Shown: positions 22,573 through 56,288 of the stretch, piece after piece
Numbering within the stretch: the stretch's first letter is position 1
Layout: every line of letters begins with the position of its first letter
Notes under the pieces: model-generated
What the model saw: the letters and a program-made list of their open reading frames with translations, nothing else
Database searches by the model: none
Told to the model about the DNA's origin: nothing
NCBI GenBank assembly: GCA_036406595.1
Contig: DASXAR010000061.1
Coordinates: 2,566 to 66,565, forward strand
Direction of reading: 5' to 3'
Source of the DNA: Solirubrobacterales bacterium
Lineage (GTDB): Bacteria; Actinomycetota; Thermoleophilia; Solirubrobacterales; 70-9
DNA length: 64,000 bases
Program-made: the position numbers and the translations under genes

Positions 22573-22599
22573 CTACCCAGGAGAGGACCCGATTGAACC
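22573..22599 (-). promoter_or_regulatory. near-consensus GGTTC-N16-GGGTAG for sodA
   Basis: Plus strand shows CTACCC 22573-22578 and GAACC 22595-22599. About 48-nt leader with a GAAGGAG SD. Confidence 0.45.
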
Positions 22600-22616
22600 T
22601 CTCATCCGGAGGGTAG
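22590..22616 (+). promoter_or_regulatory. near-consensus CGATT-N16-GGGTAG for the MFS gene, interdigitated with the sodA promoter
   Basis: GGGTAG 22611-22616. ATG 22629 is 12 nt downstream. Confidence 0.35.
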
Positions 22617-22628
22617 AGACGCCCTGCC

Positions 22629-24506
22629 ATGAACGATCAAACCGCTCAGACCGCGACGATCGAGACGCGGATACCCGCCCGCCTCGATCGACTTCCCTGG
22701 TCGAAGTTCCACTGGCTCGTCGTGATCGGCCTGGGGACGGTATGGATCCTCGACGGGCTCGAGGTGACGATCGTCGGCAGCATCGGCGATCGCCTCACCG
22801 AAAACGGCAGCGGGATCACGCTCGACCCCAGCCAGATCGGCACCGCGGCGGCCTTCTACGTCGCCGGGGCCTGTGTCGGCGCCCTCTTCTTCGGCCAGCT
22901 CACCGACCGCTTCGGGCGCAAGAAGCTCTTCCTGGTCACGCTGGGCGTCTACATCGCCGCGACCGTCGCCACCGCCTTCTCCTTCGCCGCCTGGTACTTC
23001 TACGCTGCCCGCTTCTTCACCGGATCGGGGATCGGTGGCGAGTACGCGGCGATCAACTCGGCGATCGACGAGCTGATCCCGGCCCGGGTCAGGGGCCGCG
23101 TCGACCTGATGATCAACGGCAGCTACTGGCTCGGTGCCGCGGGTGGGGCGCTGGCCGCGGTGGCCTTCCTCGACACCGCCCTGTTCGCCGCCGACGTCGG
23201 CTGGCGCCTCGCCTTCGGGCTCGGGGCACTGCTCGGCCTCGGCATCCTCTTCGTGCGCCGCAGCGTCCCGGAGAGCCCCCGCTGGCTCTTCATCCACGGC
23301 CGTGAGGAGGAGGCCGAGGGGATAGTCGGCGACATCGAGCGGGGCGTGGAGCGGGACACCGGCGAGTCCCTCTCGGAGCCCGACGAGAGCATCGAAGTCG
23401 TACAGCGCAGGCGCATCCCGTTCCGCGAGATCGCCAAGACCGCCTTCTCGAGATATCCCCGGCGGACCGTCCTCGGCCTGGCCCTTTTCGTCGGCCAGGC
23501 ATTCATGTACAACGCGGTCACCTTCGACCTCGGGACGCTGCTCGGGGAATTCTTCGAAGTAGCCTCCGGGACGATCCCGATCTACATCGCGATCTTCGCG
23601 ATCTCGAATTTCCTCGGCCCCTTCACGCTGGGCAGGCTCTTCGACACCGTGGGCCGCAAGCCGATGATCGCCGGCACCTATCTCGTCTCTGCGGCCCTCA
23701 CCGTGGTGCTCGGATTCCTACTGCTCGGCAACAGCCTCGGAACCTGGGGCTTCATGGCGTTCGTGCTGGCGATCTTCTTCGTCGCCTCCGCGGGGGCGAG
23801 CTCCGCCTATCTGACGGTCAGCGAGATCTTCCCGATGGAGACGCGGGCGCTCTCGATCGCATTCTTCTATGCGGTCGGCACGGCGGCGGGGGGTATCACC
23901 GGGCCGCTTCTCTTCGGCCATCTGATCGCCAGCGGCAGCCAGGATCAGGTTGCGATCGGCTTCTTCGTCGGCGCCGGGGTGATGGCGATCGGCGGCATCG
24001 CCGAGATCCTCTTCGGCGTCCGTGCGGAGCAGGAGAGTCTGGAGGACGTAGCCAAACCGCTCACCGCGGAGGAGGCGGAGCGGGCAGAGGAGCCGGAAAG
24101 GGCCGAGGAGTCCGAGGAGGCGGTCGAGCTGCGCCGGCGCCGGCAGGGATGGCGCGAGGCGGCGGAGGCGCACCGCCGGCGGGAACGCACCGGGCTCAGG
24201 CGCTACCGCCCGGGGCCCGGCCGGTTCGCGTCTTCGCCTGGAATGCTTCTGACGACGCCCGACGAGCCCGGCCTGGATCACGAGATCGAGATCATCGAAC
24301 GGGCACTGGGGGAGCACGGCTCCGCCAGCCGCCGGGAGCTTTACCGCCGGGTCGGCGGCCGCTACTGGGGGCCCGGGCGCTTCGGGGCGGCGCTGCGCGA
24401 GGCCGTCGCGGAAGGGCGCGCTCGACGGCTCCGCCGCGATCAGTACGCCCCGGTCGGCGAGGGGCCGGGAGGTTCGGCCGACTCCGGTGACGGGGCCGCG
24501 GCCTAG
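22629..24506 (+). CDS. MFS transporter (metabolite/sugar porter type) with about 165-aa cytoplasmic C-terminal extension
   Basis: 12-TM core (GQLTDRFGRKKLF motif), followed by an acidic linker and an Arg-rich, winged-helix-like tail. Confidence 0.8.
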   Translation: MNDQTAQTATIETRIPARLDRLPWSKFHWLVVIGLGTVWILDGLEVTIVGSIGDRLTENGSGITLDPSQIGTAAAFYVAGACVGALFFGQLTDRFGRKKLFLVTLGVYIAATVATAFSFAAWYFYAARFFTGSGIGGEYAAINSAIDELIPARVRGRVDLMINGSYWLGAAGGALAAVAFLDTALFAADVGWRLAFGLGALLGLGILFVRRSVPESPRWLFIHGREEEAEGIVGDIERGVERDTGESLSEPDESIEVVQRRRIPFREIAKTAFSRYPRRTVLGLALFVGQAFMYNAVTFDLGTLLGEFFEVASGTIPIYIAIFAISNFLGPFTLGRLFDTVGRKPMIAGTYLVSAALTVVLGFLLLGNSLGTWGFMAFVLAIFFVASAGASSAYLTVSEIFPMETRALSIAFFYAVGTAAGGITGPLLFGHLIASGSQDQVAIGFFVGAGVMAIGGIAEILFGVRAEQESLEDVAKPLTAEEAERAEEPERAEESEEAVELRRRRQGWREAAEAHRRRERTGLRRYRPGPGRFASSPGMLLTTPDEPGLDHEIEIIERALGEHGSASRRELYRRVGGRYWGPGRFGAALREAVAEGRARRLRRDQYAPVGEGPGGSADSGDGAAA

Positions 24507-26332
24507 GGTTCGGCGACGGCCTTCCCGGCCAGCGCAACCGCAGCCTCTACATGCGACAGATGGGTGAGCGCGAGGGGGAAGTTGCCGAGCATGCGACCCT
24601 GATCCGGGTCGTACTCCTCCGAGAAGAGCCCAAGCGGGCTGGCGATCGCCTCGGCCGCGTCGAACGCGGCCCGCGCCTCCTCCTCCCTCCCCTGCCGGGC
24701 GAGGCAGGTCGCGAGCCAGAATGAGCAGGCGAGGAATGCGCCCTCCTCGGGCATCCCATCGTCAGCGTCGTAACGCCGCAGCAGCCCACCCAGCTCGAGT
24801 CCGTCGCGGATCGCCTCGGTGGTCCGCAGCATCCGCTCGTCGTCCCACTCCAGGAAGCCGACCACCGGCAGCCGCAACAGGGCGGCGTCCAGGTCCGTGT
24901 GGTCGAAGTCCATGACGAAGATTTCCCTCTCCTCGTCGTAGCCGCGCTTCTCGATCGCGGCTCGCACCTCCTCGCGAGCCCGGCGCCAGCGATCCGGTAT
25001 CTCCTTGCCGCAATCCTCGCCAAGCCGGATCCCCCTGTCCATCGCCGCCCAGGTGAGCGCCTTCGAGTGCACGAAGTGGCGCGGCTCGCCCCGCCACTCC
25101 CAGATGCCCCGGTCGCGCTCCTGCCAGTGCTCGATCGCGGCGTCGACCAGCTCGGCGACGAACAGCCAGTAATCGTGATCCGGTGAGTTGCCGCGGCGAT
25201 GCCAGCGCCAGCTCTGGTCGACGAGATGCCCGAAGGCATCGAGCTGAAGCTGGGTGGAGGCCTGGTTGCCGACGCGGATCGGCTTCGCCCCTCGCCAGCC
25301 CTCGAGCCCGTCGAGCTCCTGCTCGCCGAGGCGACGCTCCCCCCCGACGCCGAAGAGGATCTGCAGGTCCTTCGCGTTGCCCGCCGCGCTGCGCTCGATG
25401 AAACTGCGGAAGTCGTCGGCGTCGCGATCGCAGCCCAGCTCGGCGAGCGAGCGCACGGTGAGTGCCGAATCCCTGACCCAGCTGTAGCGGTAATCCCAGT
25501 TGCGCTCGCCGCTCAGGTTGCGCGCCTCGGGCAGCGAGGTGGTGGCGGCGGCTGCGATCGCGCCGGTGGGCTCATAGGAGAGGGCCTTCAGGGTGAGAGC
25601 CGAACGGCTGACGGCGGGAAATCCGTCCGTCACCTCCGCGTCGATGCAGGAGGCCCACTCCTGCCACCACTCGATCGCCGCATCGAGGTCCTCCTCGCAG
25701 GCGGCTCGATCGAGAGGCTCGAAGCCATCGAGCGAATCGAGCTCGACCGGCCGCCGGTACCCGATCTCGAGCACCGCCCGGTCGCCCTCCTTCAGCGCGG
25801 CCGAGCAGACGAGCCGGTGCCGCCCCTCGAACTCGAAATCCAGCCCGCTGCGGATCAGCAGGCCGTCGTCGCCGCCGATCGCGGCCCAGACACCGTCGCC
25901 CCCGCGCAGCCAGGGGGCCACGGACCCGTAGTCGAAGCGCGGGGCGACGCAGACGCGGGGCTCGATGCTCCCGCCGACGCAGTCGAGGATGCGCACGATC
26001 CTCGGCCCTTTCCCGCCGGGGCGGGTGAAGAAGTCGATCAGCCGCGCCTCCCCGTCGGACGACCGCAGGCGCGTCTCCAAGACCATGCTCCTGTCGAGAT
26101 ACCGCTGCTCCCCATCCTCCCCGAGCGCGATCGAGCAGTGACCACCGCACTCGCGATCGAGCAGCCGAGCGAACAGCGCACCGGAGTCGAAGCGGGGCAT
26201 ACAGCACCAGTCGATCGAGCCCCCCCGCGAGACGAGGGCGGCGCTGCGACGATCCCCAATCAGCCCATAGTCCTCCAGCGGGGAGTACGATTGTCCTGAA
26301 TCGCCGGGCTGATCACCCGCAGCGGATCCCAC
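24503..26332 (-). CDS. glycoside hydrolase family 15 (glucoamylase/trehalase-like)
   Basis: YSPLEDYGLIGDRRSAALVSRGGSIDWCCMPRFDS N-terminus and (alpha/alpha)6 catalytic-region motifs. GTG start lies 9 nt after GGGTAG. Confidence 0.85.
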   Translation of the reverse strand: MGSAAGDQPGDSGQSYSPLEDYGLIGDRRSAALVSRGGSIDWCCMPRFDSGALFARLLDRECGGHCSIALGEDGEQRYLDRSMVLETRLRSSDGEARLIDFFTRPGGKGPRIVRILDCVGGSIEPRVCVAPRFDYGSVAPWLRGGDGVWAAIGGDDGLLIRSGLDFEFEGRHRLVCSAALKEGDRAVLEIGYRRPVELDSLDGFEPLDRAACEEDLDAAIEWWQEWASCIDAEVTDGFPAVSRSALTLKALSYEPTGAIAAAATTSLPEARNLSGERNWDYRYSWVRDSALTVRSLAELGCDRDADDFRSFIERSAAGNAKDLQILFGVGGERRLGEQELDGLEGWRGAKPIRVGNQASTQLQLDAFGHLVDQSWRWHRRGNSPDHDYWLFVAELVDAAIEHWQERDRGIWEWRGEPRHFVHSKALTWAAMDRGIRLGEDCGKEIPDRWRRAREEVRAAIEKRGYDEEREIFVMDFDHTDLDAALLRLPVVGFLEWDDERMLRTTEAIRDGLELGGLLRRYDADDGMPEEGAFLACSFWLATCLARQGREEEARAAFDAAEAIASPLGLFSEEYDPDQGRMLGNFPLALTHLSHVEAAVALAGKAVAEP

Positions 26333-26341: not shown

Positions 26342-26369
26342 CTACCCCGGCCCCGGCCGGCGGCAAACC
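26342..26369 (-). promoter_or_regulatory. SigB/F-type promoter GGTTT-N17-GGGTAG for GH15 (leaderless)
   Basis: Plus strand shows CTACCC 26342-26347 and AAACC 26365-26369. GTG 26332 is 9 nt after GGGTAG. Confidence 0.6.
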
Positions 26370-26370: not shown

Positions 26371-26397
26371 GTTTTGCTCCCGGTCCGCGGTGGGTAG
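26371..26397 (+). promoter_or_regulatory. SigB/F-type promoter GTTT-N17-GGGTAG upstream of the sigma gene (autoregulatory candidate)
   Basis: GTTT 26371-26374 and GGGTAG 26392-26397. About 105-nt leader to ATG 26503. Confidence 0.6.
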
Positions 26398-26457
26398 CCA
26401 GACACTCAGCAAAGCGAGACTTACAAAATGCCGTACGGCCCGTTTAAGGCTCGAGGG

Positions 26458-26484
26458 CGGTACCGGATGTGGACCTCGGTACCG
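26458..26484 (+). promoter_or_regulatory. leader hairpin formed by two self-complementary CGGTACCG octamers in the sigma-gene 5' UTR
   Basis: Octamers at 26458-26465 and 26477-26484, separated by an 11-nt loop. Confidence 0.35.
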
Positions 26485-26502: not shown

Positions 26503-27339
26503 ATGGCAGACGAGCGACTCAGCGAGGAGATGGATAGCTTGCCGGGCCCCGGTGCGGGAACGCAACTGGCGAGCGAACGGGAGCTCTGGCGTCGCTTCTC
26601 CCAGAGCCGTGACCCTGAGGTTCGCGAGGAGCTGGTGCGCCGCAACATGCCGTTCGCGAAGCGCCTCGCGCTCCGCTACCGGGGCGCCAGCGAGTCGTTC
26701 GACGACCTCCTGCAGGTCGCCAACCTGGGCTTGCTCAACGCGATCGATCGCTTCGATCCCGATCGCGGAATCCCCTTCACCGCCTTCGCCTCGCCGACCG
26801 TCCTGGGTGAGCTCAAACGGCACTTCCGCGACCGTGTCTGGACCGTTCGCGTGCCACGCGGCCTGCACGATCGCATGGCGGAAGTCGACAAAGCGATCAC
26901 CGAGCTGACCAAACAGCTACAGCGCTCCCCCTCGATCCCGGAGATCGCCGAGCGGCTCGAGCTCGAGCAGACCGACGTGCTCGAGGTGATGGAGGCAAAC
27001 CACAACCGGCGGCCCCTCTCGCTGGACCGTCCGGCGGGGCCCGAGGACCCCGACGAGTCGATGCCGGTCGAATGGGTCGGCCACGAGGACCAGGCCTACG
27101 AGCTGGTGGAGGGCAGGATCGCCCTCGACGCAGCCCTGCCTTTCCTCGACGAGCGGGAGCGGCTGGTGCTCAGGCTTCGCTTCGCGGAGGACATGACCCA
27201 GTCCCAGATCGCAGAGCGAATCGGCCACTCGCAGATGCACGTCTCGCGCATCCTGCGCCGAGCGCTGGCACGCATCCGCGACCGGATCGAGGAGGAACGC
27301 GGCGAGAGCGAGCGCCCCGCCGAGACCCCGGAGGACTAG
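26503..27339 (+). CDS. RNA polymerase sigma factor, SigB/SigF/SigG (group 3) type
   Basis: Regions 2-4 are recognisable (DDLLQVANLGLLNAIDRFDP, RVPRGLHD, SQIAERIGHSQMHVSRIL). Confidence 0.9.
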   Translation: MADERLSEEMDSLPGPGAGTQLASERELWRRFSQSRDPEVREELVRRNMPFAKRLALRYRGASESFDDLLQVANLGLLNAIDRFDPDRGIPFTAFASPTVLGELKRHFRDRVWTVRVPRGLHDRMAEVDKAITELTKQLQRSPSIPEIAERLELEQTDVLEVMEANHNRRPLSLDRPAGPEDPDESMPVEWVGHEDQAYELVEGRIALDAALPFLDERERLVLRLRFAEDMTQSQIAERIGHSQMHVSRILRRALARIRDRIEEERGESERPAETPED

Positions 27340-28181
27340 CGCGCGGCGACGAAGTGGACGACGAGATAATCGCCGTCGTCTGACCCCTCGATCGTCAGAT
27401 CATCCGCAAGAGCCTCGAGCGATCCGCCGACGGCCGGAACTTCGAGCTCCTCGACGATCTTCCCGGCGGCTCCCGGCTCCATCGGTCCGATCCGCAGGCC
27501 GATTCCATCCCCGGCCTCGTCGAGACCGAGCCGCACGCGCCCGTCCTCGAAGCGTGAGGGCACCGCGGCGGCAATTGCGTCGGTGACGAGGACCGCGTCG
27601 GAAACGCGATCGACCGAGAGCTCTCGACGCGCCGCGAGGGCGCCGACCACCCTGGCGAGGACCGGTCCGAGCAGCTCGGCTCGGTCGGTGACGAGCTCGG
27701 TCACGTCCTCTCCTTTCGGCACCTCCGTCGTCGGCTCGCCGTCGAGGCTTCCGGCTGCGCCGCCCGTGAGCGGCAGGCGCATCGAGACCTCCGTCCCCTG
27801 GTTGAGCCCGCCCGATATCGCGAAGCTGGTGGAGAGCGCCGCGATCAGCGAGAGACCGAGGCGGAGGCTGTCGCGTTCGGGGTCGGCCTGTGGCCGGATC
27901 CCCACCCCCTCGTCGCGTACCGTCACGGTGAGGCCGCTGTCGTCGGGCATCGCCTCCACGCTGAGCGGCCCGGGCCGGCCCTCGTAAGCATGGACGGCGA
28001 CGTTCATGCAGGCCTCGGTCACCACCGTCTTCAGATCCGCAAGGCCCGCTTCGTCCATGCCGATCTCCTCCGCGAGACCGGCCAGCGCGTGCCGAATCAC
28101 GGCGACGTTCTCCGCCCTGGCGGGAAGAATCATCTGGAGGCCGCTCGGCCTCTCGGTGGGGGTCGACGTGTATGGCATCAA
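27336..28181 (-). CDS. RsbW/UsfX-like anti-sigma serine kinase (HATPase_c) with a second, degenerate repeat of the fold
   Basis: N-box EACMNVAVHAY, G1 VRDEGVGI, G2 RLGLSLI. The C-terminal 140 aa repeat this pattern without the Asn or the DxGxG motif. Confidence 0.8.
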   Translation of the reverse strand: MMPYTSTPTERPSGLQMILPARAENVAVIRHALAGLAEEIGMDEAGLADLKTVVTEACMNVAVHAYEGRPGPLSVEAMPDDSGLTVTVRDEGVGIRPQADPERDSLRLGLSLIAALSTSFAISGGLNQGTEVSMRLPLTGGAAGSLDGEPTTEVPKGEDVTELVTDRAELLGPVLARVVGALAARRELSVDRVSDAVLVTDAIAAAVPSRFEDGRVRLGLDEAGDGIGLRIGPMEPGAAGKIVEELEVPAVGGSLEALADDLTIEGSDDGDYLVVHFVAAR

Positions 28182-28254: not shown

Positions 28255-28281
28255 CTACCCCTGCTGGCCGGGCGTGAAACC
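28255..28281 (-). promoter_or_regulatory. SigB/F-type promoter GGTTT-N16-GGGTAG for the RsbW-like kinase
   Basis: Plus strand shows CTACCC 28255-28260 and AAACC 28277-28281. Confidence 0.6.
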
Positions 28282-28310: not shown

Positions 28311-28682
28311 GTGAGTCCGTCGCCGTTCGACGCGCGATTCGAGGAGCTGGAGGGTGGGATCCGCACCTTCACGGTGTGCGGAGAGCTCGACATGAATACG
28401 GCCCCGGAGCTTGCGCAGCTGCTCGAGGAGAATGTCTCCGGGCCGGAGGGCGCCGTGATGCTGGACCTCACGCAGTGCGAGTTCATCGACTCGACCGGGA
28501 TCGCCCTGATCGTGCGCACCTGGCAGCAGGTCGACCGCGACGCGGGCGGCGAGGGCAGCGGCCGCATGGTGATCTGCTGCAGCAACCATCAGGTCCTGCG
28601 GCTGCTGAAGATCACCGGGGTCGACTCCTCGATCTCGCTCTACGACGGCCGCGAGGCCGCGCTCGCAGCGCTGCGCGACTGA
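28311..28682 (+). CDS. STAS-domain anti-sigma-factor antagonist (RsbV/SpoIIAA-like)
   Basis: CEFIDSTGIALIV carries the conserved phosphorylatable Ser. GTG start lies 7 nt after a TAGGAT -10. Confidence 0.85.
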   Translation: MSPSPFDARFEELEGGIRTFTVCGELDMNTAPELAQLLEENVSGPEGAVMLDLTQCEFIDSTGIALIVRTWQQVDRDAGGEGSGRMVICCSNHQVLRLLKITGVDSSISLYDGREAALAALRD

Positions 28683-28690: not shown

Positions 28691-28715
28691 GTTTCGGCAC
28701 CGAAACTCGGGGTAG
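28691..28715 (+). promoter_or_regulatory. GTTT-N15-GGGTAG upstream of ctaC; overlaps a GTTTCGG-CA-CCGAAAC palindrome (function ambiguous)
   Basis: GTTT 28691-28694 and GGGTAG 28710-28715. The palindrome at 28691-28706 lies just after the STAS stop. Confidence 0.4.
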
Positions 28716-28742: not shown

Positions 28743-29696
28743 GTGGAGGCGGGGGCGAGGTATGTGTCCCCCCTAGACCCACACAGCCCCGCGGCACGCG
28801 ATATCGCCACGCTGTGGTGGTGGATGCTGGCGGCGGCGGCGATCGTCTTCGCAGGGGCGATCGCGCTGCTCTGGCTGGGCTGGCGGCGCCGGGGCGAGCC
28901 CGGGCTGCCGTGGATCGGCGAGAGCGAGCGCTTCAACACCGGGCTGGTGGTCGCGTTCGGGATGGTGATCCCCGCGGTCGTCCTCTCGGCGCTGTTCGTC
29001 GGCGCCAACCTGGTCGTGATGCGGGACACCGAACCGCCCAGCCGCAGCGCGACGGCGATGACCATCGTCGCGATCGGCCATCAGTGGTGGTGGGAGTTCC
29101 GGTATCCCGAAAGCGGAGTCGTCACCGCCAACGAACTCCACATCCCCGCCTCCACCTCCGTGAACCTGGAGGCCCGCTCGGCCGACGTCATCCACTCCTT
29201 TTGGGTGCCGGAGCTGAACCGCAAGATCGACATGGTCCCCGGCCAGCGCAACCGGATCGAGCTCTACGCCGAACATGCGGGGACGTACCGCGGGCAGTGC
29301 GCGGAGTTCTGCGGCCTCCAGCACGCCAACATGGCATTCAACGTCGTCGCCGAACCGCAGAGCGGCTTCCAGAGCTGGCTCCGGCAGGAGCAGGCCCCGG
29401 CGGAGCCGCCCCAGGGAGCCGAGGCGGTGGCCGGGATGAGGGCGTTCATGGAAGGCGCCTGCGCCAGCTGCCACACGATCAGCGGCACCGAGGCGCGGGG
29501 CACCGTGGGGCCCGACCTGACCCATGTGGCGAGTCGCGCCACGCTCGCCGCGCTGACCGGGCCCAACCGGCACGGATTCCTCGATCAGTGGATCAGTGAC
29601 CCGCAGAGCATCAAGCCCGGCAGCAAGATGCCCGGGCTCGAGTTGACGGAAGCCCAGTTCAGATCGCTGGTCGCCTACCTCTCGGGGCTGCGCTGA
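28743..29696 (+). CDS. ctaC: cytochrome c oxidase subunit II with fused C-terminal cytochrome c domain (caa3 type)
   Basis: CuA site CAEFCGLQHANM and heme c site CASCHTI. Two N-terminal TM helices. Confidence 0.9.
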   Translation: MEAGARYVSPLDPHSPAARDIATLWWWMLAAAAIVFAGAIALLWLGWRRRGEPGLPWIGESERFNTGLVVAFGMVIPAVVLSALFVGANLVVMRDTEPPSRSATAMTIVAIGHQWWWEFRYPESGVVTANELHIPASTSVNLEARSADVIHSFWVPELNRKIDMVPGQRNRIELYAEHAGTYRGQCAEFCGLQHANMAFNVVAEPQSGFQSWLRQEQAPAEPPQGAEAVAGMRAFMEGACASCHTISGTEARGTVGPDLTHVASRATLAALTGPNRHGFLDQWISDPQSIKPGSKMPGLELTEAQFRSLVAYLSGLR

Positions 29697-29709
29697 TGGG
29701 AGCCCCCTG

Positions 29710-31614
29710 ATGGCTATCGCGATTCCGCCCGAGGCACGCAGCAGGGTCGAACGGCTCGAGAGCATCTGGAAGGAGGGCTCGGGAATCGTCGGCTGGCTGA
29801 CGACGGTCGACCACAAGCGGATCGGCATCCTCTACTTCTTCACCTCGCTCGCCTTCTTCGCAGCGGGCGGCGTCGAGGCGCTGCTGATCCGCACCCAGCT
29901 GATCGGCCCGAACCAGGGCGTGGTCGGGCCTCAGACCTTCGATCAGCTGATGACCGTGCACGGCGTGACGATGATCTTCCTCTTCGTCGTCCCGATGTCC
30001 GTGGGGGCCTTCGGCAACTACCTGCTGCCGCTGATGATCGGCGCCCGGGACATGGCCTTCCCGCGGATGAACGCCGTCTCCTACTGGATCTATCTCTGCT
30101 CCGGCATCTTCATCTACGTCGGCCTCTTCACCGGAAACGGGCCGAGCGCCGGCTGGTTCAACTACGTGCCGCTGGCCTCCCGCGCCTACAGCCCCGGCCC
30201 CGGAATCGACTTCTACGCGCTGGGGCTGATGTTCACCGGGATCTCGACCACCGCGGCCGCGATCAACATCATCGTGACCATCTTCAAGCTGCGCGCCCCG
30301 GGGATGTCGATCAACCGGATGCCGCTCTTCTGCTTCGCCTTCCTCGCCGTCTCGTTCGCACTCGTCTTCGCCCTGCCGCCGCTCAACATCGCTCTCTTCC
30401 TGCTCGAGCTCGACCGGCTCCTCGGCTTCCACTTCTACGACGTCGGCCTGGGCGGCAACGCGATCCTCTGGCAGAACCTCTTCTGGATCTTCGGCCACCC
30501 CGAGGTCTACATCATCATCCTGCCCGCCTTCGGGATCGCGACCTCGATCATCCCGACCTTCACCCGTCGCAGGATGGTCGCCTTCCCGTTGGTCGCCCTC
30601 GCCGAGATCCTCGTCGCCTTCATCGGCTTCGGCGTCTGGGCACACCACATGTTCGCCGTCGGCCTCTCCTCGGTGACGACGATCTACTTCGCCGCCGCAA
30701 GCCTGGTGATCGTGATTCCCAGCGGCATTCAGCTGTTCGCCTGGATAACGACCATCGTCACCGGAACGCCTCGGTTCCAGACCCCTTTGCTGTGGATCAT
30801 CGGCTTCATCGTCCTCTTCATCCTCGGCGGGCTCTCCGGCGTGATGTTCGCGGCGATTCCCTTCGACCAGCAGCTCACCGACACCTACTTCGTCGTCGCC
30901 CACTTCCACTACGTGATCTTCGGCGCCGCGGTCTTCCCCCTGCTGGGCGGCATGTACTACTGGTTCCCGAAGGTGACCGGCCGCATGTACCACGAGGGCT
31001 GGGGGAAGACCAGCTTCTGGCTCACCTTCGCCGGCATGAACCTGACCTTCTTCCCGATGCACATCCTCGGCCTGGCGGGAATGCCGCGGCGCGACTACAC
31101 CTACGGGGGCGACCTCGGCTGGACCGCCCTGAACGCGATCGAGACGATCGGCGCCTACCTGCTCGCGGCCGGCCTCCTGACCGTCGCAGCCAACCTCGCC
31201 GTCAGCCTCTTCAGGGGCGCGCCTGCCGGCGCGGACCCCTGGCAGGGGGACACTCTCGAGTGGTCGACGAGCTCGCCGCCGCCGCCCTACAACTACGCGG
31301 TCATCCCCACCGTCACCAGCCCCTACGCGATGTGGGATCGCGAGGACCGCGATGCCGACGTCAGGAACCTCGCCGAAGGTGAGAAGACCCTCGAGCAGGG
31401 GCACGAGACCGCATCGACCAGCGTCGTCGACGCCGAATGGGACGAGATCCTCGAGATGCCGTCGAGGTCGTGGTGGCCACCGGTCGTCGCGGTTGCGCTC
31501 TCGGGGGTTTTCGCCTTCATCCTCCTGCAGCGCTGGCTGGCTGCCGGCATATTCCTGCTGCTCACCTTCGCTGCGATCGGCGGCTGGCACTGGAAGGAGC
31601 CCCAAGAAGCATGA
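29710..31614 (+). CDS. ctaD: cytochrome c oxidase subunit I (14-TM long form)
   Basis: Canonical heme-copper oxidase motifs (WFFGHPEVY-like LFWIFGHPEVYI, HHMF) plus two extra C-terminal helices. Confidence 0.95.
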   Translation: MAIAIPPEARSRVERLESIWKEGSGIVGWLTTVDHKRIGILYFFTSLAFFAAGGVEALLIRTQLIGPNQGVVGPQTFDQLMTVHGVTMIFLFVVPMSVGAFGNYLLPLMIGARDMAFPRMNAVSYWIYLCSGIFIYVGLFTGNGPSAGWFNYVPLASRAYSPGPGIDFYALGLMFTGISTTAAAINIIVTIFKLRAPGMSINRMPLFCFAFLAVSFALVFALPPLNIALFLLELDRLLGFHFYDVGLGGNAILWQNLFWIFGHPEVYIIILPAFGIATSIIPTFTRRRMVAFPLVALAEILVAFIGFGVWAHHMFAVGLSSVTTIYFAAASLVIVIPSGIQLFAWITTIVTGTPRFQTPLLWIIGFIVLFILGGLSGVMFAAIPFDQQLTDTYFVVAHFHYVIFGAAVFPLLGGMYYWFPKVTGRMYHEGWGKTSFWLTFAGMNLTFFPMHILGLAGMPRRDYTYGGDLGWTALNAIETIGAYLLAAGLLTVAANLAVSLFRGAPAGADPWQGDTLEWSTSSPPPPYNYAVIPTVTSPYAMWDREDRDADVRNLAEGEKTLEQGHETASTSVVDAEWDEILEMPSRSWWPPVVAVALSGVFAFILLQRWLAAGIFLLLTFAAIGGWHWKEPQEA

Positions 31615-36557: not shown

Positions 36558-36584
36558 GGCTCGACCGGTACCCGGCGGTCAGCG

Positions 36585-45269: not shown

Positions 45270-45312
45270 GCTTTGCCCTCGGGGATCGAAGCCCCGGGAT
45301 TGGAGTCCGCAT

Positions 45313-46067: not shown

Positions 46068-46068
46068 C

Positions 46069-46718: not shown

Positions 46719-47120
46719 GGCGATGGCGCCGAAGCGGGCGACGGCCTCCTCGGGATCGGGATAGACCTCACCGCGAATGAAGAGCCCGTCACGAACCTCC
46801 CAGATCCAGGCGACGGGGAGGTCGCGGATCCCGAGCTCGCGGCTGCGCGCGTAGACCCGGCCGCGGACGAGCACCGTCGATCCTCTCCACTCCTGTGTGC
46901 CCGGCACGATCTGAAGCTCTTCCCAGATCTCCTCGATGTCGTCCATGTAGTCGCGAAGGCCGGCCGGGCCGACGTATGGGCCGACGCGGCCCACCGCCTC
47001 CGCCGTGACGATCGGATAGAAAGCCATCTCGTCGTCGCAGACCGCTCGGATGCATTCCTCGTCGCGCCGATTGAAGCAATCGAAGAGGCGCTCTACCAGC
47101 TCGGGCCCGGACCCCTCCAT
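46713..47120 (-). CDS. SnoaL/NTF2-like fold protein
   Basis: 135 aa. LVERLFDCFNRRDEE...WIWEVRDGLF, typical of the SnoaL-like/ketosteroid-isomerase-like fold. Confidence 0.65.
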   Translation of the reverse strand: MEGSGPELVERLFDCFNRRDEECIRAVCDDEMAFYPIVTAEAVGRVGPYVGPAGLRDYMDDIEEIWEELQIVPGTQEWRGSTVLVRGRVYARSRELGIRDLPVAWIWEVRDGLFIRGEVYPDPEEAVARFGAIAV

Positions 47121-48526: not shown

Positions 48527-48715
48527 GGCTCACTCGCTCCCCTCAAGGTACCTCTACTAAAAAGAGAGTACTGGCGATCTGCCGCTATGTCCATGCACGC
48601 GCAGCTAATTCATCGGCCCCGGCACTCCCGTGCGGCGCGCGCGAGCGAGGGGACGGTCCGCCGCTTCGGCAGGAGCCGCGCCGCGGGGACCTCCTCGCTC
48701 ATCCCAACCCGCGAT

Positions 48716-49612
48716 TCAGGCCGCAACCACGGGCGGCACCACGGGGTCGTAGCCGAACTCCGCGAGCGCCCCGCCGATCTCGGCGTGCATCGCCTGCTGC
48801 TCGTTCTCGGTCAGATTCCGCCGCCAGGCTCCGGGGCTCGCGGCGCGCTCGCGGAGGTGGGGCCCGCGGCTCCCGGGCGGCAGTCGCTCGAAGCTGTGGC
48901 GGGCCGCGACCGCAGCAGCCTCTCGGCGGTCCAGGCCGAGCAGGTCACAGAGGCGCTCGAGAGAGCGCGTGGCCTCGCCGAGCAGGTCCTCGTAGCGCAG
49001 CATGAGGCGGTTCTCCGGCCGGGTCGCCTCATATGCGTCGCGCACCGCGCGGCTGCGGTATGCCCAGACCGCGGAAAGCCAGCGGATCAGCGGGATGCGC
49101 CCCTGCTCGGACACCGGGAAGGCGCCGCCTGGTATCGCCCATGCACCCTCCCGGTACGCGGCCAGCCATGAGTCGACCACATCCCGGCCATCCCGCAGCA
49201 GGAATATCAGCCGCCCCGCGGGAAAGAGCGCGGTGAGGAGGGGAGCGACATGGGAGCCGGGCTCCTTCACCACCAGCAGGGCCCTCCCGTCCTCGGAACC
49301 GTGTTCGGCGACCTGCGAGTCGAACCGAGCGGCGATCAGCTGCCGCAGCGGCTCCCACCAGCTTTCCCGGTGGCGCTCCGAGAAGAAGTAGCAGGGCTCC
49401 TCCGCCTTCAGGTCGAGGAGCGTCGTCAGGTCAGGCGGCTCACCGTCGGCGACTGCCCAGGCGAGCGGGATCGGACGCCAGACGCCGAGATGATGACCGA
49501 GGTGGGGATCGTCGATCGGCACCACTCCGTCGAACTCCGAGAGCATCTTCAGGAGCCAGGTGCTGCCACTGCGTGACGAGCCGAAGATCCAGATCAGGCG
49601 CCGTTCGTCCAT
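48716..49612 (-). CDS. sulfotransferase family protein
   Basis: PAPS 5'-phosphosulfate-binding loop IFGSSRSGSTWL and the LLRDGRD region. Confidence 0.75.
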   Translation of the reverse strand: MDERRLIWIFGSSRSGSTWLLKMLSEFDGVVPIDDPHLGHHLGVWRPIPLAWAVADGEPPDLTTLLDLKAEEPCYFFSERHRESWWEPLRQLIAARFDSQVAEHGSEDGRALLVVKEPGSHVAPLLTALFPAGRLIFLLRDGRDVVDSWLAAYREGAWAIPGGAFPVSEQGRIPLIRWLSAVWAYRSRAVRDAYEATRPENRLMLRYEDLLGEATRSLERLCDLLGLDRREAAAVAARHSFERLPPGSRGPHLRERAASPGAWRRNLTENEQQAMHAEIGGALAEFGYDPVVPPVVAA

Positions 49613-49641
49613 GTCGGAGGAGTGAGCTCGTCGAGTTCAGA

Positions 49642-49845
49642 TCAGAGCCGCTCTGAGCGCGCACCGCCCGAGCATCGGGGCGACGACGGCAACCGCCTTC
49701 TCGCCCATGTGCCGCCCGCGGCGGCCCCGCCGAACAGCCCGGCGCCGTGCTTTGCGCCGATCGCGTCTGCGAGTGCCCTGTGCCGCGCCGCCATCTCGTG
49801 GGGGCAGGTCGCTCCCCGATGTCGAGCATTTGCGCTTGATGCCAT
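49642..49845 (-). CDS. candidate leaderless small ORF (67 aa), or simply the 5' leader of the sulfotransferase mRNA
   Basis: ATG 49845 lies 10 nt after the GGGTAG of an exact GTTT-N15-GGGTAG promoter. GC3 is only about 75% and no family was recognised. Confidence 0.25.
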   Translation of the reverse strand: MASSANARHRGATCPHEMAARHRALADAIGAKHGAGLFGGAAAGGTWARRRLPSSPRCSGGARSERL

Positions 49846-49855
49846 CCCGATTCGG

Positions 49856-49881
49856 CTACCCAGAGGGGTGGACGAGAAACC
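49856..49881 (-). promoter_or_regulatory. SigB/F-type promoter GGTTT-N15-GGGTAG upstream of the sulfotransferase
   Basis: Plus strand shows CTACCC 49856-49861 and AAACC 49877-49881. Confidence 0.55.
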
Positions 49882-49889: not shown

Positions 49890-50981
49890 TCAGTAGCGGA
49901 GCAGCGCCGCCGAGCCGTCCACGCTCGAAAGCAGCTCGGCCGCCTTTCCCGTCACCGCGACGACGTTGGCTCCGCCGTCGAGAGCCCGGCGGACCAGTTG
50001 CTCGCACCTTGCCGCAAACCCGGCATCGAGAACCAGGGTGTCCACCCTCGCTTCCGCGAGCGCCGCCTCGGTCTCCTGGGTTCCCGCGGCGCCGCGCATC
50101 CCGCCCCGGGCCGATTCGAGGGTGCGCTCGACCAACTCACGGTCCCGCTCGGCGTCGAGGGCTTTCGCGGCATCGGCCAAGGCGACCTCGAGCTTTCCCG
50201 CGGGCTCGGAGATCAAATCCGCGTCACCGCCCGGCCCGATTGCGACCCCGGGCAGGTTGAGGCCGCGCCGGAACTCCCGGACGTGGTCGGCGGCGCCGAA
50301 GATGATCAACTGGCTCCAACGGCGCGCCTCCGCCGGCCCGGCCACGAGACGGCCGCACTCTCCGAGAAAGCGGTGGCGGTTCTCCTCGAGCCGCTCCTCG
50401 AATTGGTCGCGGCCGGACGCGCTCACGGCCTGCGATCGGGCCGGGTCGGAGGGACGTTGCGCCTTCCGCTCCCTCCAGTCGTCGCTGAAGACGCTCATCT
50501 CCCAGCTCTCCAGCTCCTCGACGTGGCCGGGAGCCCACTCGAGCAGGCGAACCCGCTCAGCCGAGATCAGGGCCACCCCACGCGACGCACCGCGTTCGAG
50601 CATGCAGACGAGGGGCGCGACGAGCGGCTGCTCGTCGAAGAAGGCCGCCGGTGACGACTCGGCCGAGACATGCCCCGCCCACCACGACTCCGAGCCCGCC
50701 TTCGCGGCCACCTCGACGAAGCCGACTTCGGCTCGCGGCAGGCTGCGCTCGTGATCGGCGAATCGCTCGCCGAGCCGCTCGCAGGTCGCGCGAAGCGCGG
50801 TGGCGGCCTCGTGGCCGAGCCCGTCCTTCCGCTCGAGAACCGAGGACAGCCCATTGCTGAGCTCGGTGCGCCAGCGACCACCACGGTCGCCGGGGTCGAG
50901 CCGCAGGTAGATCGAGATGACGCCGAGCGGCGGCTTCCAGCGCGCAAGTCGCCGCACGTCGTCGAGGGTCGGCCAGGGCAT
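49890..50981 (-). CDS. bacterial archaeo-eukaryotic release-factor-like (baeRF / Vms1-VLRF1-like) protein
   Basis: 363 aa. The N-terminal ISIYLRLDP...RW and C-terminal ...GSAALLRY resemble the actinobacterial aeRF1-like family as I remember it. Confidence 0.55.
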   Translation of the reverse strand: MPWPTLDDVRRLARWKPPLGVISIYLRLDPGDRGGRWRTELSNGLSSVLERKDGLGHEAATALRATCERLGERFADHERSLPRAEVGFVEVAAKAGSESWWAGHVSAESSPAAFFDEQPLVAPLVCMLERGASRGVALISAERVRLLEWAPGHVEELESWEMSVFSDDWRERKAQRPSDPARSQAVSASGRDQFEERLEENRHRFLGECGRLVAGPAEARRWSQLIIFGAADHVREFRRGLNLPGVAIGPGGDADLISEPAGKLEVALADAAKALDAERDRELVERTLESARGGMRGAAGTQETEAALAEARVDTLVLDAGFAARCEQLVRRALDGGANVVAVTGKAAELLSSVDGSAALLRY

Positions 50982-50993: not shown

Positions 50994-51019
50994 GTACCCG
51001 CCGCAACGGGCTCGAATCT
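50994..51019 (-). promoter_or_regulatory. near-consensus GATT-N15-GGGTAC for the baeRF gene
   Basis: Plus strand shows GTACCC 50994-50999 and AATC 51015-51018. ATG 50981 is 12 nt downstream. Confidence 0.35.
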
Positions 51020-51777: not shown

Positions 51778-51802
51778 GTTTCCCCCACCCCGATCCGGGT
51801 AG
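51778..51802 (+). promoter_or_regulatory. SigB/F-type promoter GTTT-N15-GGGTAG for the 74-aa ORF (leaderless)
   Basis: GTTT 51778-51781 and GGGTAG 51797-51802. ATG 51812 is 9 nt downstream. Confidence 0.6.
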
Positions 51803-51811: not shown

Positions 51812-52036
51812 ATGCTCGACACGGTCTCACTTCCGCGACCGGGACAGAGGTGGCTCAGCTGCCCGCCCTACGTTCTGATCGCCCACGTGGTCCAGCTCGA
51901 CCAGAGCGTCGAGCCCCCGGTGGTGAGCTACGAGCTGCAGGACGACGAGGGGTGCCTGCTCGAGAGTGTTGAGCACGCGGTGGTCGACGAGGGCTGGTGG
52001 AAGACGTTCCAGCCGATGGTCGTCCGGCGAGGCTAG
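51812..52036 (+). CDS. hypothetical 74-aa protein (candidate leaderless gene)
   Basis: GC3 about 89%. ATG lies exactly 9 nt after the GGGTAG of an exact GTTT-N15-GGGTAG promoter. Confidence 0.5.
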   Translation: MLDTVSLPRPGQRWLSCPPYVLIAHVVQLDQSVEPPVVSYELQDDEGCLLESVEHAVVDEGWWKTFQPMVVRRG

Positions 52037-52089: not shown

Positions 52090-52308
52090 TCATCGCGGCT
52101 CACCCCAGAGTCCCTTATGGCTGTCGTCCTCGTACTTGCCCGCGTGCCCGGTCGGCGGCTCCATCCGCTCGTCGGCGCGGGGCCGGCCGCTGACATAGAC
52201 GAGGAAGGCGACGAACAAGGGCACGGCGATGATCAACGCGAAGAGCGGCGACCAGGCGACCGCGATCACCGCGAGGATGACGAGGGCGATCAGTGGGATC
52301 ACGTACAC
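52090..52308 (-). CDS. small 2-TM membrane protein
   Basis: 72 aa with two hydrophobic helices and a charged tail. Last gene of the DJ-1 operon. Confidence 0.5.
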   Translation of the reverse strand: MYVIPLIALVILAVIAVAWSPLFALIIAVPLFVAFLVYVSGRPRADERMEPPTGHAGKYEDDSHKGLWGEPR

Positions 52309-52323
52309 GACTCTTACCTGCTC

Positions 52324-52584
52324 TCAGTAACGCGGCGGAACTTCCCGCGGCGGGACTTCCCGCGGCGGCACCTCTTCGCGCCGCTCGGCCGCCGCCACTT
52401 CGCGCCGGCGGCTGCGCTCGGTCCAGATCGCCTCCTGGAAGAAGGCGAGAATGAGGCCGGCGGCGCCGGCTCCCATCAGGATCCAACCGACGACGTCGAG
52501 GTTGACCCCCTGGACATGGAGGTTGGTCGCGAAGGTGAGAATCGCTCCGACGACGATAAGGAGGAGCGCGCCGGCGATGGTCAT
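52324..52584 (-). CDS. DUF6458 family small membrane protein
   Basis: MTIAGALLLIVVGAILTFA...VVGWILMGAGAAGLILAF pattern. ATG 52584 overlaps the DJ-1 stop. C-terminal (E)VPPR x3. Confidence 0.65.
   Translation of the reverse strand: MTIAGALLLIVVGAILTFATNLHVQGVNLDVVGWILMGAGAAGLILAFFQEAIWTERSRRREVAAAERREEVPPREVPPREVPPRY
52331..52375. repeat. 15-bp x3 tandem repeat at the 3' end of the DUF6458 gene
   Basis: CGCGGCGG(A/G/C)AC(T/C)TC(C/T) x3. Encodes (E)VPPR x3. Confidence 0.85.
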
Positions 52585-53159
52585 CGTGCCACCGCCTCGC
52601 GCTGCTCCTCGTGAACTCCCTCGGCGAACTCCTCGACGATCTTCGCGGTGAAGGCAGGCAGGTCGTCTGGTTTGCGACTGCTCACCAACCCCCGGTCCAC
52701 GTGGACCTCCTCGTCGACCCATTCCGCGCCGGCGTTGCGAAGGTCGGACTGAAGGCTCGGCCACGAGGTCAGCGTGCGGCCGCGGGCCAGTCCCGCATCA
52801 ATCAGAGTCCATGGCCCGTGACAGATGACGCCGACGGGCTTGCCGGCCTCGAATATGGCGCGAGCGAAATCCAGCGCCTCCTGGTCGGTGCGCAGCTGGT
52901 CGGGATTGGCGACGCCCCCGGGCAGGACCAGGCCGTCGAATTCGGCCGGGTCGGCATCGCCGACCGCCTCGGCCGCGAAGACGTCGCCCTTGTCGAGATG
53001 ATTGAAGGCCTGGACCTCGCCCGATTCGGGGGCGAGGATCACCGTCTCGGCGCCGGCATCGCGCACGCTCTGAAGCGGCTCGGTCAGCTCGACCTGCTCG
53101 ACGCCCTCGTTCGCGGTCAGAAACGCGATCCGCTTTCCCCTCAGCTCGTCAGACATCAC
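52581..53159 (-). CDS. DJ-1/PfpI family protein (type 1 glutamine amidotransferase-like, general stress protein 18-like)
   Basis: Nucleophile elbow VICHGPW. 192 aa. Confidence 0.85.
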   Translation of the reverse strand: MMSDELRGKRIAFLTANEGVEQVELTEPLQSVRDAGAETVILAPESGEVQAFNHLDKGDVFAAEAVGDADPAEFDGLVLPGGVANPDQLRTDQEALDFARAIFEAGKPVGVICHGPWTLIDAGLARGRTLTSWPSLQSDLRNAGAEWVDEEVHVDRGLVSSRKPDDLPAFTAKIVEEFAEGVHEEQREAVAR

Positions 53160-53192: not shown

Positions 53193-53216
53193 TCCCCGCG
53201 AGCGCCGCACCCAAAC
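53193..53216 (-). promoter_or_regulatory. weak GTTT-N15-GGGGAC match upstream of the DJ-1/PfpI operon
   Basis: Plus strand shows AAAC 53213-53216. The -10 deviates from consensus (GGGGA). Confidence 0.2.
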
Positions 53217-53326: not shown

Positions 53327-53602
53327 CTATGTCGCCTCCGCGCCTTCCTCGCCCGGCCAACTGCCGGTGAGGCGATGGAAGCTACGCCTGCTGCCGTGGT
53401 CGACCACCCCTTTGACCAGCCGGAAGACGGCACCTTCCAGAAGGAGCGCCGGGACCAGCCTCGCAAAGCTCGCCTCACGCTGGTCGGGCTCCGGGGCCTC
53501 CTCCTCGTCGAAGGCCAGCCAGATGCGCCTCACGCCCCAGCGCGCCACCGCCCCGGCGAGGAGACTGGTGAGGACGCCGAACGGTATGAACAGGACCTTC
53601 AT
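53327..53602 (-). CDS. DUF4235 domain protein
   Basis: 91 aa. Membrane-proximal helix plus the LLEGAVFRLVKGVVD pattern. Confidence 0.6.
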   Translation of the reverse strand: MKVLFIPFGVLTSLLAGAVARWGVRRIWLAFDEEEAPEPDQREASFARLVPALLLEGAVFRLVKGVVDHGSRRSFHRLTGSWPGEEGAEAT

Positions 53603-54135
53603 CGCGCCCCCGGACGCTCAGGCGATCCCTCGAGCTCGTACTCGCGCAGGAAGCCCTCGAAGAGCCGCCGGTGCGACTGCTCGTCGTGGAGGATCTCGAT
53701 CGTCATGTCCTGCGTCACCGGGTCGACCTGGTCGGTCTCCTCGACGATCCGCGTGTAGTGCTCGATCGCGCCGGTCTCGGCCTTGATAACGCCGCGGATC
53801 ACGTGCACGGTGTCGGTCTGCTCCTCGGGAGGCTGGAGGTAGCTCTGTTCCGGCGCGAATTCCTCCGAGCCCGGCACGACTCCGTAGAGCTCCTTGATCC
53901 GCTCGGCGAAGCGTTTGGCGTGCCCGAGCTCCTCGTCGACGTCCTCGGCGAGCGACTCCTTGATCTCCTGCGCGCGGACACCATCGAGATTGACCGAGGC
54001 CGAGATGTAGCTCATCACCGTCTCGATCTCCATCCAGTAGGCCGTGCAGAGGAGGTCGACCACCTGCTGGCGCTTCTCCAGGTTGTCGCTGTCCAGAATG
54101 CCCTTTCCGGGCGATGTCGATGCCTCCATGAACAT
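53599..54135 (-). CDS. ferritin-like (Dps/bacterioferritin-like four-helix bundle) protein
   Basis: AYWMEIETV...EELGHAKRFAERI...E..H di-iron-type ligand spacing. Confidence 0.65.
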   Translation of the reverse strand: MFMEASTSPGKGILDSDNLEKRQQVVDLLCTAYWMEIETVMSYISASVNLDGVRAQEIKESLAEDVDEELGHAKRFAERIKELYGVVPGSEEFAPEQSYLQPPEEQTDTVHVIRGVIKAETGAIEHYTRIVEETDQVDPVTQDMTIEILHDEQSHRRLFEGFLREYELEGSPERPGAR

Positions 54136-54166: not shown

Positions 54167-54193
54167 CTACCCGAACCGCGCGGAAGTCAATCC
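54167..54193 (-). promoter_or_regulatory. near-consensus GGATT-N16-GGGTAG for the ferritin-like/DUF4235 operon
   Basis: Plus strand shows CTACCC 54167-54172 and AATCC 54189-54193. Confidence 0.45.
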
Positions 54194-55363: not shown

Positions 55364-55437
55364 CGGGGCGTGGCGCAGCCTGGTAGCGCGCACCGTTCGG
55401 GTCGGTGAGGTCCCCGGTTCAAATCCGGGCGCCCCGA
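55364..55437 (+). tRNA. tRNA-Pro (anticodon CGG)
   Basis: 74-nt cloverleaf. Acceptor CGGGGCG/CGCCCCG, D arm GCGC-AGCCTGGTA-GCGC, anticodon arm CACCG-TTCGGGT-CGGTG, T arm CCCGG-TTCAAAT-CCGGG. CCA is not encoded. Confidence 0.9.
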
Positions 55438-56205: not shown

Positions 56206-56211
56206 CCGAGC

Positions 56212-56217
56212 ATTATC
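56212..56217 (-). promoter_or_regulatory. -10 GATAAT, 6 nt before the dsbA ATG 56205 (leaderless)
   Basis: Plus strand reads ATTATC. Confidence 0.45.
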
Positions 56218-56261
56218 CCGGGCGGCGATCACGGCCGAATTCCCGCAATCTGCGAGTAATC

Positions 56262-56288
56262 GTTTGACACGTCCGTCGCCGGGGGTAA
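56262..56288 (+). promoter_or_regulatory. SigB/F-type promoter GTTT-N17-GGGTAA for the small HTH gene / fadD
   Basis: GTTT 56262-56265 and GGGTAA 56283-56288, within an AT-rich patch. Confidence 0.5.

Follow-up and report, generated by a model that had tools for sequence, protein, structure and literature searches.

In Bacillus subtilis, the autoregulated operon rsbV-rsbW-sigB-rsbX, with its RsbU/RsbP inputs, combines a STAS antagonist, an anti-sigma kinase and a PP2C phosphatase and has a general stress output; the regulator genes are co-transcribed, the targets of sigma-B are scattered, and we know of no leaderless targets in this regulon. In Mycobacterium smegmatis, SigF promoters have the consensus GTTT-N(14-19)-GGGTA, many of the sites being located 8-11 nucleotides (nt) from the start codon (PMC4694148, Table 1); the mycobacterial consensus is also given as GGWWT-N16-17-GGGTAY (PMC4694148, PMC7693655), and GGGTA was seen at the -10 position of experimentally mapped, hypoxia-induced transcription starts of M. 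smegmatis (PMC6448022). In the same species a long run of SigF-dependent genes, MSMEG_1766-MSMEG_1804, adjoins sigF (PMC4694148), and loss of the aa3 oxidase induces the SigF regulon (PMC7693655). Promoters of the form GTTT...GGGTAG/C are read by Streptomyces SigB homologues (PMC8346170). Here we analyze a 64-kb stretch of DNA (the window) from Solirubrobacterales (class Thermoleophilia, Actinomycetota), an uncultured soil lineage, where a bipartite motif of this kind precedes most transcription units of a 34-kb neighbourhood that also encodes a SigB/SigF-type sigma factor; we read the motif copies as promoters of a stress regulon. The Solirubrobacterales are abundant in soil and, with few exceptions, uncultured; to our knowledge, no experiments on their gene regulation have been described.

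The window contains nine exact matches to GTTT-N15-17-GGGTA against 0.08 expected (100 dinucleotide shuffles, maximum of one match). The earlier note, made from the letters of this DNA, had listed the same nine sites, with coordinates 1 nt off since flanking G bases were included. Genes were called from the G+C content of codon positions (GC1, GC2, GC3), real genes having GC1 > GC2 and GC3 of ~0.9; by these calls ~88% of the window is coding. Each of the nine exact sites is located between genes and points toward its neighbour, just as had been claimed, and near matches are likewise upstream and gene-oriented. Shuffling the intergenic DNA only, we obtained expectations of 0.007 exact and 0.91 one-mismatch sites versus 8 and 7 observed, and 57 kb of coding DNA had no exact and three one-mismatch sites. 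Exact sites are confined to 26.3-56.3 kb, with none in the remaining 30 kb of the window. The sites, all of them predicted promoters, are given below with the genes behind them (protein families were assigned with Pfam and NCBIfam; 'core' gives the coordinates of an exact match; aa, amino acids; ORF, open reading frame).

22573-22599 (-), sodA (21920-22519); GGTTC-N-GGGTAGC
22591-22616 (+), MFS transporter gene (22629-24506); possible but doubtful, ATG 13 nt after the -10 box
26342-26368 (-), GH15/trehalase-like gene (24503-26332); core 26343-26368, leaderless with GTG 10 nt after GGGTA, the sigma promoter being divergent; the protein has a trehalase-like N-domain
26371-26397 (+), sigma gene; core 26371-26396, GTTT-N17-GGGTAG, leader of ~106 nt
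28255-28280 (-), RsbW-like gene; core 28256-28280, GTTT-N16-GGGTAG, the best-conserved site, its spacer not conserved
28691-28715 (+), ctaC-ctaD-ctaE-orf80-qcrC-qcrA-qcrB (28743-35743); core 28691-28714
36614-36638 (+), operon (~36680-42647) for a thiamine pyrophosphate (TPP) enzyme, an MR_MLE enolase and a FAD-oxidase-FeS protein; core 36614-36637, ATG 42 nt downstream, preceded by GGAAAGGAA
43701-43725 (-), SDR gene (42687-43691), candidate; GTGT-N15-GGGTAG, GTG 10 nt after the -10 box, absent from the earlier list
43740-43765 (+), mscS (43775-44692); GTTA-N16-GGGTAGC, ATG 10 nt after the -10 box (leaderless)
46693-46718 (-), MpsC/DUF2294 pair (46069-46683, 45675-46067); core 46694-46718, GTG 10 nt after the -10 box
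48538-48563 (-), GAF-SpoIIE gene, weak and uncertain candidate; GTTTTTAGTA...GGGGAG, absent from the earlier list
49856-49880 (-), sulfotransferase gene (48716-49612); core 49857-49880, non-coding leader of 244 nt
50995-51018 (-), baeRF (49890-50981), possible; GATT-N15-GGGTAC, ATG 13 nt after the -10 box
51778-51802 (+), 74-aa ORF (51812-52036); core 51778-51801, ATG 10 nt after the -10 box (leaderless)
53193-53216 (-), DJ-1/PfpI gene (52581-53159), candidate; GTTT-N15-GGGGA, absent from the earlier list
54167-54192 (-), ferritin/Dps-like gene (53599-54135) and DUF4235 gene (53327-53602); GATTGA-N-GGGTAGC
56262-56288 (+), 60-aa ORF similar to helix-turn-helix (HTH) proteins (56329-56511) and fadD (56534-58315); core 56262-56287, GTTT-N17-GGGTAA

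The hexamer GGGTAG occurs 30 times in the window against 11.5 expected, and 13 copies are intergenic and gene-facing, the same figures as those of the manual count made earlier. Over-representation of GGGTAG extends to coding DNA, and of the 30 copies 17 do not resemble promoters. The -10 element is mostly GGGTAGC (11 observed, 4.1 expected). Outside the two boxes, the nine exact sites have no sequence in common. When sites of the related loci (see below) were aligned on the -10 box, information was present only in the two boxes; the spacer columns, at ~0 bits, indicate that what keeps the boxes alike is selection and not recent shared ancestry. Flanking preferences are weak, a G before GTTT and G/C followed by C after GGGTA, and the spacer lengths are, from the commonest down, N16, N15 and N17. 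The motif thus defined matches the published mycobacterial SigF consensus and resembles that of Streptomyces and Bacillus SigB, which bears out the identification made in the earlier note.

For comparison we took the best 80 loci found with the sigma protein, at 75-88% identity, in metagenome-assembled genomes (MAGs) of uncultured Solirubrobacterales, 980 kb in total; complete chromosomes among these relatives have ~2.5-2.9 Mb. The related loci contain 155 exact sites versus ~1 expected by chance, situated in front of genes for the RsbW-like protein (77 sites), the sigma factor (27), MscS (11), the small ORF (7), FadD (4), GH15 (3) and CtaC (2), with single sites at a sulfotransferase gene, at orf72 and at a DUF72 gene. 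A site was assigned to an orthologous gene if it was located no more than 350 nt upstream. By this count, the RsbW-like gene has an exact site in 76 of 76 orthologs, and the 74-aa ORF in 8 of 9, the ninth having one mismatch. All 23 orthologs of the ferritin-like gene have a one-mismatch site, always GATTGA...GGGTAG, 28-45 nt from the start codon. Sites were present for 14 of 21 mscS orthologs (8 exact and 6 one-mismatch, mostly at 10-11 nt), for 3 of 3 DJ-1 orthologs (GTTTG-N-GGG(G)CA at 33-43 nt), for 2 of 2 sulfotransferase orthologs and for 23 of 71 sodA orthologs (GGTTG...GGGTAC/G, mostly at 60-64 nt). All three orthologs of orf72 have a site 10 nt before the start; the window copy of this 72-aa membrane ORF (52090-52308(-)) has no recognisable site in 52309-52340. 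Syntenic genes that are not targets gave 0/66 (LemA), 1/68 (GMC oxidoreductase), 0/30 (unk353), 0/10 (Trx4) and 1/42 (STAS1), and two further non-targets gave 0/66 (g18646) and 1/65 (SnoaL). For the sigma gene itself, an equivalent upstream site was seen in only ~31 of 80 relatives.

Several targets have fewer counterparts. Exact sites precede GH15 orthologs in L029, L038 and L044 and fadD orthologs in four loci, a near-identical HTH/fadD promoter being present in L010 and L045; elements similar to the weak GAF-SpoIIE site occur in L032, L055 and L072. For ctaC, exact sites were seen in L029 and L044, as well as in L081-L085, L092 and L094 of a second comparative set, a metagenome scan with ctaC as query. 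In that scan every close ctaC ortholog located among stress-island genes (L081-L085, L092, L094) has an exact site, its neighbours being GH15, sigma, RsbW-like, STAS1, DJ-1 and DUF72 genes; ctaC homologs at 56-63% identity, on contigs of higher G+C content, and those below 50% identity are without the site.

Gene order varies across relatives, and in many of them mscS directly follows the kinase gene. As orthologs keep the motif despite the changed order, the motif travels with the gene and not with the position. The shared backbone consists of LemA, GMC, SodA, sigma, RsbW-like, (STAS1/MscS), SnoaL, GAF-SpoIIE, (ferritin), unk353 and Trx4 genes; the window has an insert of ~18 kb between STAS1 and SnoaL, with cta/qcr, the TPP operon, SDR, MscS, STAS2 and MpsC genes, most of them with a motif of their own. 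Upstream of the sigma gene, related loci have about two exact sites in ~400 kb; with this DNA nearly motif-free, the clustering is real and not part of a genome-wide flood. The relatives support the regulon proposed in the earlier note: the motif is kept at orthologous targets through rearrangement and is absent from syntenic non-targets. The relatives also have a family of ~230-250 aa proteins (MEDRKR..RGCPEGRSQL...HSPDGAF) with no Pfam match and no member in the window. In at least seven relatives (L024, ~10243-11020(+), L002, L005, L007, L019, L025 and L030) an exact motif stands directly in front of its gene, at a distance of 11-14 nt from the start.

The distance to the start codon gives evidence of another kind. 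At 5 of 17 window sites, a start codon is present exactly 10 nt after GGGTA (0.27 expected, P = 5e-6), in frame with the genes for GH15, MpsC, the 74-aa protein, MscS and SDR, and at three further sites the distance is 11-13 nt. Across all exact sites, those of the window and of the relatives, the gap peaks at 10-11 nt, and the 74-aa protein is conserved from the Met at the 10-nt position in nine relatives. Start codons fixed at 10 nt would place the beginning of transcription ~10 nt past the -10 box. The spacing implies leaderless mRNAs, in which the predicted transcription start would coincide with the start codon; it also argues for a promoter rather than for the binding site of a regulator. 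In the remaining targets, purine-rich ribosome-binding sequences are present in a leader.

The genes of the putative partner switch are the following.

26503-27339 (+), SigB/SigF/SigG-family sigma gene, 278 aa; Pfam Sigma70_r2, r3 and r4, TIGR02980
27336-28181 (-), RsbW/SpoIIAB-like HATPase_c_2 kinase gene, 281 aa, convergent with the sigma gene; putative anti-sigma
28311-28682 (+), STAS antagonist 1, DSTG phospho-motif; no promoter motif of its own
44922-45269 (+), STAS antagonist 2 with a DSTG motif; the next gene belongs to MpsC/DUF2294
47120-48517 (-), GAF-SpoIIE (PP2C) phosphatase, GAF and SpoIIE domains; putative partner-switch input

The sigma protein scores 260.5 bits with TIGR02980 (curated cutoff 234.35), which makes it a SigB/SigF/SigG family member; its scores are below the cutoffs of narrower models (SigF NF005514, 239 vs 372; Sigma_B TIGR02941, 204 vs 315), and by these family models it is a member of the family and not an ortholog or equivalog of any named protein. 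It has regions 2, 3 and 4 and no region 1.1, its best PDB matches are sigma-B (8x6g_H) and SigF (1l0o_C), and its N-terminus is kept from residue 1 in relatives. The recognition helix of region 4.2, SQMHVSR, is identical in SigF (8jzt) and in Staphylococcus aureus sigma-B (8x6g), and differs in WhiG. The earlier statement that a sigma factor of this type is encoded in the window was, therefore, correct. The RsbW-like gene is syntenic with the sigma gene in 77 of 80 relatives, and the GAF-SpoIIE gene in 64 of 80; both STAS proteins pass TIGR00377 and carry FIDSTGIA. Domain type and conserved adjacency suggest that the kinase is the anti-sigma. Its C-terminal half (27336-27760(-), residues ~145-281) matched no Pfam family; this extension could be a sensor or a sigma-binding part.

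We put the probability at roughly 0.8 that the sites are promoters read by RNA polymerase with the sigma factor of 26503-27339, or a close paralog, and form a stress regulon under partner-switch control. In this model the polymerase with this group-3 sigma would bind GTTT as the -35 and GGGTA(G/C) as the -10 box, 15-17 bp apart, and would start transcription ~10 nt downstream of the -10 box. At about a third of the targets the predicted start would be the start codon itself, giving a leaderless mRNA; the others would have leaders with ribosome-binding sites. The activity of sigma is probably set by a partner switch made of the RsbW-like kinase as anti-sigma, the two DSTG STAS antagonists and the GAF-PP2C protein, through which we infer that an inducing signal enters. 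In this genome sigma would drive its own gene, and in all relatives the anti-sigma-like gene, a conserved negative feedback. With sites at 76 of 76 RsbW-like genes and ~31 of 80 sigma genes, the core of the circuit would be sigma driving its presumed anti-sigma, positive autoregulation being optional in the clade. The predicted output combines functions in general stress and starvation: superoxide dismutase, Dps/ferritin-like, DJ-1, MscS, GH15/trehalase-like and DUF2294 proteins, along with small proteins annotated without function and the complete bc1-caa3 respiratory operon. Transcripts from the sulfotransferase promoter may extend into the PP2C gene, which also has the weak candidate site of its own.

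Some observations weigh against this reading or against parts of it. The RsbW-like kinase, twice as long as usual, scores well under the RsbW and SpoIIAB equivalog cutoffs (61 vs 135 and 53 vs 145). The sigma and kinase genes are convergent, their stop codons overlapping by 4 nt (27336-27339), and each has a predicted promoter of its own, in place of the co-transcription typical of sigB and usfX-sigF operons. No recognisable site precedes the sigma gene in ~45 of 80 relatives; autoregulation of sigma is, therefore, not a conserved property. About one near-match is expected by chance in the intergenic shuffles. The five near sites of the earlier note are all present where it had placed them, and conserved sites in orthologs support three of them (mscS, ferritin-like gene, sodA); the MFS site stays unconfirmed, with the motif in 0 of 10 orthologs, and so does that of baeRF, which, like SDR, has no orthologs in the comparison set and hence no comparative support. 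A candidate site for ctaG (36569-36593) was dropped as unsupported (0 of 4 orthologs). One related MAG (MFD01721.bin.1.228) has two paralogous sigma copies, L066 and L079, and exact motif sites are missing altogether from the locus of the latter; with two paralogs in at least one related MAG, the assignment of the sites to the window sigma is tentative.

This last point bears on who reads the sites. With much the same confidence as above, the sites can be considered SigB/SigF-type promoters forming a regulon; for the neighbouring sigma as their only reader our confidence is somewhat lower, because Streptomyces paralogs cross-recognise such promoters and because of the related MAG with two paralogs. 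One could go further and suppose that a paralogous sigma encoded elsewhere is the main reader, the neighbouring sigma being just one factor among several with overlapping recognition. The nine SigB homologues of S. coelicolor do cross-recognise such promoters (PMC8346170), L066 and L079 are found together in one MAG, and the two flavours of the -35 box, GTTT versus the conserved GATTGA/GGTTG of the ferritin-like gene and sodA, could reflect two sigmas. However, the motif is present before the window sigma gene, the neighbouring RsbW-like gene has one in all 76 orthologous loci, regulon genes cluster around the sigma locus, the genomes are small (~2.5-2.9 Mb), and most MAGs gave a single locus among the best 80; we consider such a main reader unlikely.

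A dimeric regulator would likewise leave a conserved bipartite motif upstream of genes, and the two boxes might then be its binding site rather than a promoter. Yet the boxes form neither a direct nor an inverted repeat, their spacing can vary by 2 bp, the motif points toward the gene in every case and, where it stands 10 nt before a start codon, leaves no space for a separate promoter; moreover, it equals a sigma consensus experimentally mapped at -35/-10. All this makes a regulator site very improbable. Chance, a compositional artefact or a dispersed repeat, similar to repetitive extragenic palindromes or miniature inverted-repeat transposable elements (REP/MITE), might be thought of, since oligomer frequencies are skewed in high-GC genomes and GGGTAG is over-represented in coding DNA as well. 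We regard this probability as negligible and the idea as effectively refuted: 0 of 100 shuffles reached even two matches, flanks and spacers are without the similarity of repeats, and the motif is kept at orthologous targets while the surrounding sequence diverged.

Taking the sites as promoters of the SigB/SigF type, one could speculate that in this clade sigma directly drives a complete, possibly the only, bc1-caa3 chain, thus placing aerobic respiration under partner-switch control, and that regulon genes were progressively recruited beside sigma as an expandable 'stress island' around a sigma/anti-sigma/PP2C core. We find this doubtful, though conceivable.

Further observations concern particular genes. 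The ctaCDE genes, an 80-aa ORF and qcrCAB form one cluster, from which ctaG is divergent; a cytochrome c domain is fused to the C-terminus of CtaC, which is the caa3 type, and QcrC is dihaem. The -35 box of the ctaC promoter is within a perfect hairpin, GTTTCGG-CA-CCGAAAC (28691-28706), a few bases past the stop codon of STAS1; the hairpin might terminate or attenuate read-through from STAS1. The TPP operon includes an enolase-superfamily protein and a 1024-aa FAD-oxidase/Fe-S protein. Its TPP enzyme passes the TPP-protein model NF006129 and not the pyruvate-oxidase models, so the label 'PoxB-like' given earlier was only approximate; the other gene labels hold, those of the 74-aa ORF, of the short HTH-like ORF in front of fadD and of DUF4235 included. 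An ortholog of the 60-aa HTH-like ORF reaches 24.5 bits with IF2_N (cutoff 25.3). The 74-aa protein is without a Pfam or NCBIfam family and has 60-74% identity in nine relatives, with the pattern MIDTKSIPRPGERWLS...EGWWK.FQP. STAS2 adjoins three paralogous MpsC/DUF2294 genes (44922-46683), one on the plus and two on the minus strand; the motif is found only at the minus-strand pair. The sodA and MFS candidate promoters (22573-22616) are divergent, with -35 boxes overlapping on a palindrome (GGTTCAATC / GATTGAACC).

The sulfotransferase leader (49613-49856(-), 244 nt) showed no coding signal, homologs or Rfam match, and its fold is no better than that of shuffles (z = -0.6); a 129-aa ORF overlapping it was rejected. 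Sulfotransferase orthologs have only 13-26 nt in the position of the leader. Transcription from this promoter possibly reads on into GAF-SpoIIE and SnoaL. Convergent transcription of the sigma and kinase genes would collide or give antisense RNA. In the 5' untranslated region of the sigma gene, a patch at 26430-26465(+) (GCCGTACGGCC...GGCTCGAGGGCGG) is common only to L011, L012, L014, L023, L033 and L037. A global MAFFT alignment of sigma upstream regions was misleading, as intergenic lengths differ and the apparent conservation of the patch was partly misalignment; a fuzzy search of these regions matched mostly antisense sodA coding sequence. A site before LemA (19363-19388) was rejected for its poor -35 box and 0 of 66 orthologs. 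The GC3 filter missed two genes, for a DUF6325 and a SHOCT-domain protein (5272-5766(+), 5788-6066(+)). The sole Rfam match in the window was a tRNA gene at 55364-55437(+), and a scan for E. coli-type sigma-70 promoters and terminators was uninformative in this GC-rich DNA.

For the Solirubrobacterales, these results offer a usable promoter model, GTTT-N15-17-GGGTA(G/C) with a predicted start 10 nt downstream, and a means of setting the start codons of leaderless genes in their MAGs. They also give a first sketch of a regulon, including conserved families without function (the 74-aa ORF, the ~240-aa family, DUF2294 and DUF4235). The mechanism is not new: the regulon design is already known from mycobacteria, Streptomyces and Bacillus, and clustering beside sigF from M. 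smegmatis. We consider moderately notable that a respiratory operon appears as a direct target, alongside the link of SigF and respiration in M. smegmatis; that the predicted feedback onto the anti-sigma-like gene is universal with variable sigma autoregulation, the sigma and kinase genes being convergent; and that G or C is preferred after GGGTA and the putative regulon genes are gathered round the sigma locus.

Among described systems, sigma-B of B. subtilis would share the logic of the predicted circuit and has a similar -10 (GGG(T/A)A) and -35 (GTTT) element (consensus quoted in PMC8346170). The Bacillus spacer is 12-14 between hexamers, whereas here it is 15-17 between GTTT and GGGTA, and identity at the protein level is only moderate (204 bits with TIGR02941, cutoff 315), so that the window sigma is not an equivalog. 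The SigB family of S. coelicolor, with nine paralogs, resembles ours in being a high-GC actinobacterial group-3 sigma family with GTTT/GNNT...GGGTA(C/T/G) promoters, GGGTAG included; its members have roles in osmotic and oxidative stress and RsbA/RsbV-type partner switching (PMC8346170). There, many paralogs cross-talk and have developmental roles, while here a small genome apparently has one or two paralogs and tightly clustered targets.

The system of M. smegmatis and M. tuberculosis, SigF with RsbW(UsfX)-RsfA/RsfB, differs from ours in several respects. Mycobacterial rsbW-sigF form an operon, while here the sigma and RsbW-like genes are convergent with predicted promoters of their own; the kinase here, of 281 aa, includes an additional domain without annotation; GGGTA is followed by G or C here and by Y there; and the complete ctaCDE-qcrCAB operon is itself a predicted target here, whereas in M. 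smegmatis it is loss of the aa3 oxidase that induces the regulon. The lineage, too, is a different one, Thermoleophilia, known from sequence alone. In other respects the two are alike: the sigma family is the same, with an identical region 4.2 helix, and the mycobacterial regulon, which is linked to respiration and hypoxia (PMC7693655, PMC6448022), resembles the predicted one in its range, with an RsbW paralog, STAS antagonists, Dps, trehalose enzymes, dehydrogenases and small conserved hypotheticals. With the same consensus, predicted leaderless targets and a dense run of genes beside the sigma gene in both, the mycobacterial SigF design would extend to the deep-branching Thermoleophilia, including the clustering of targets beside sigma and the leaderless targets.

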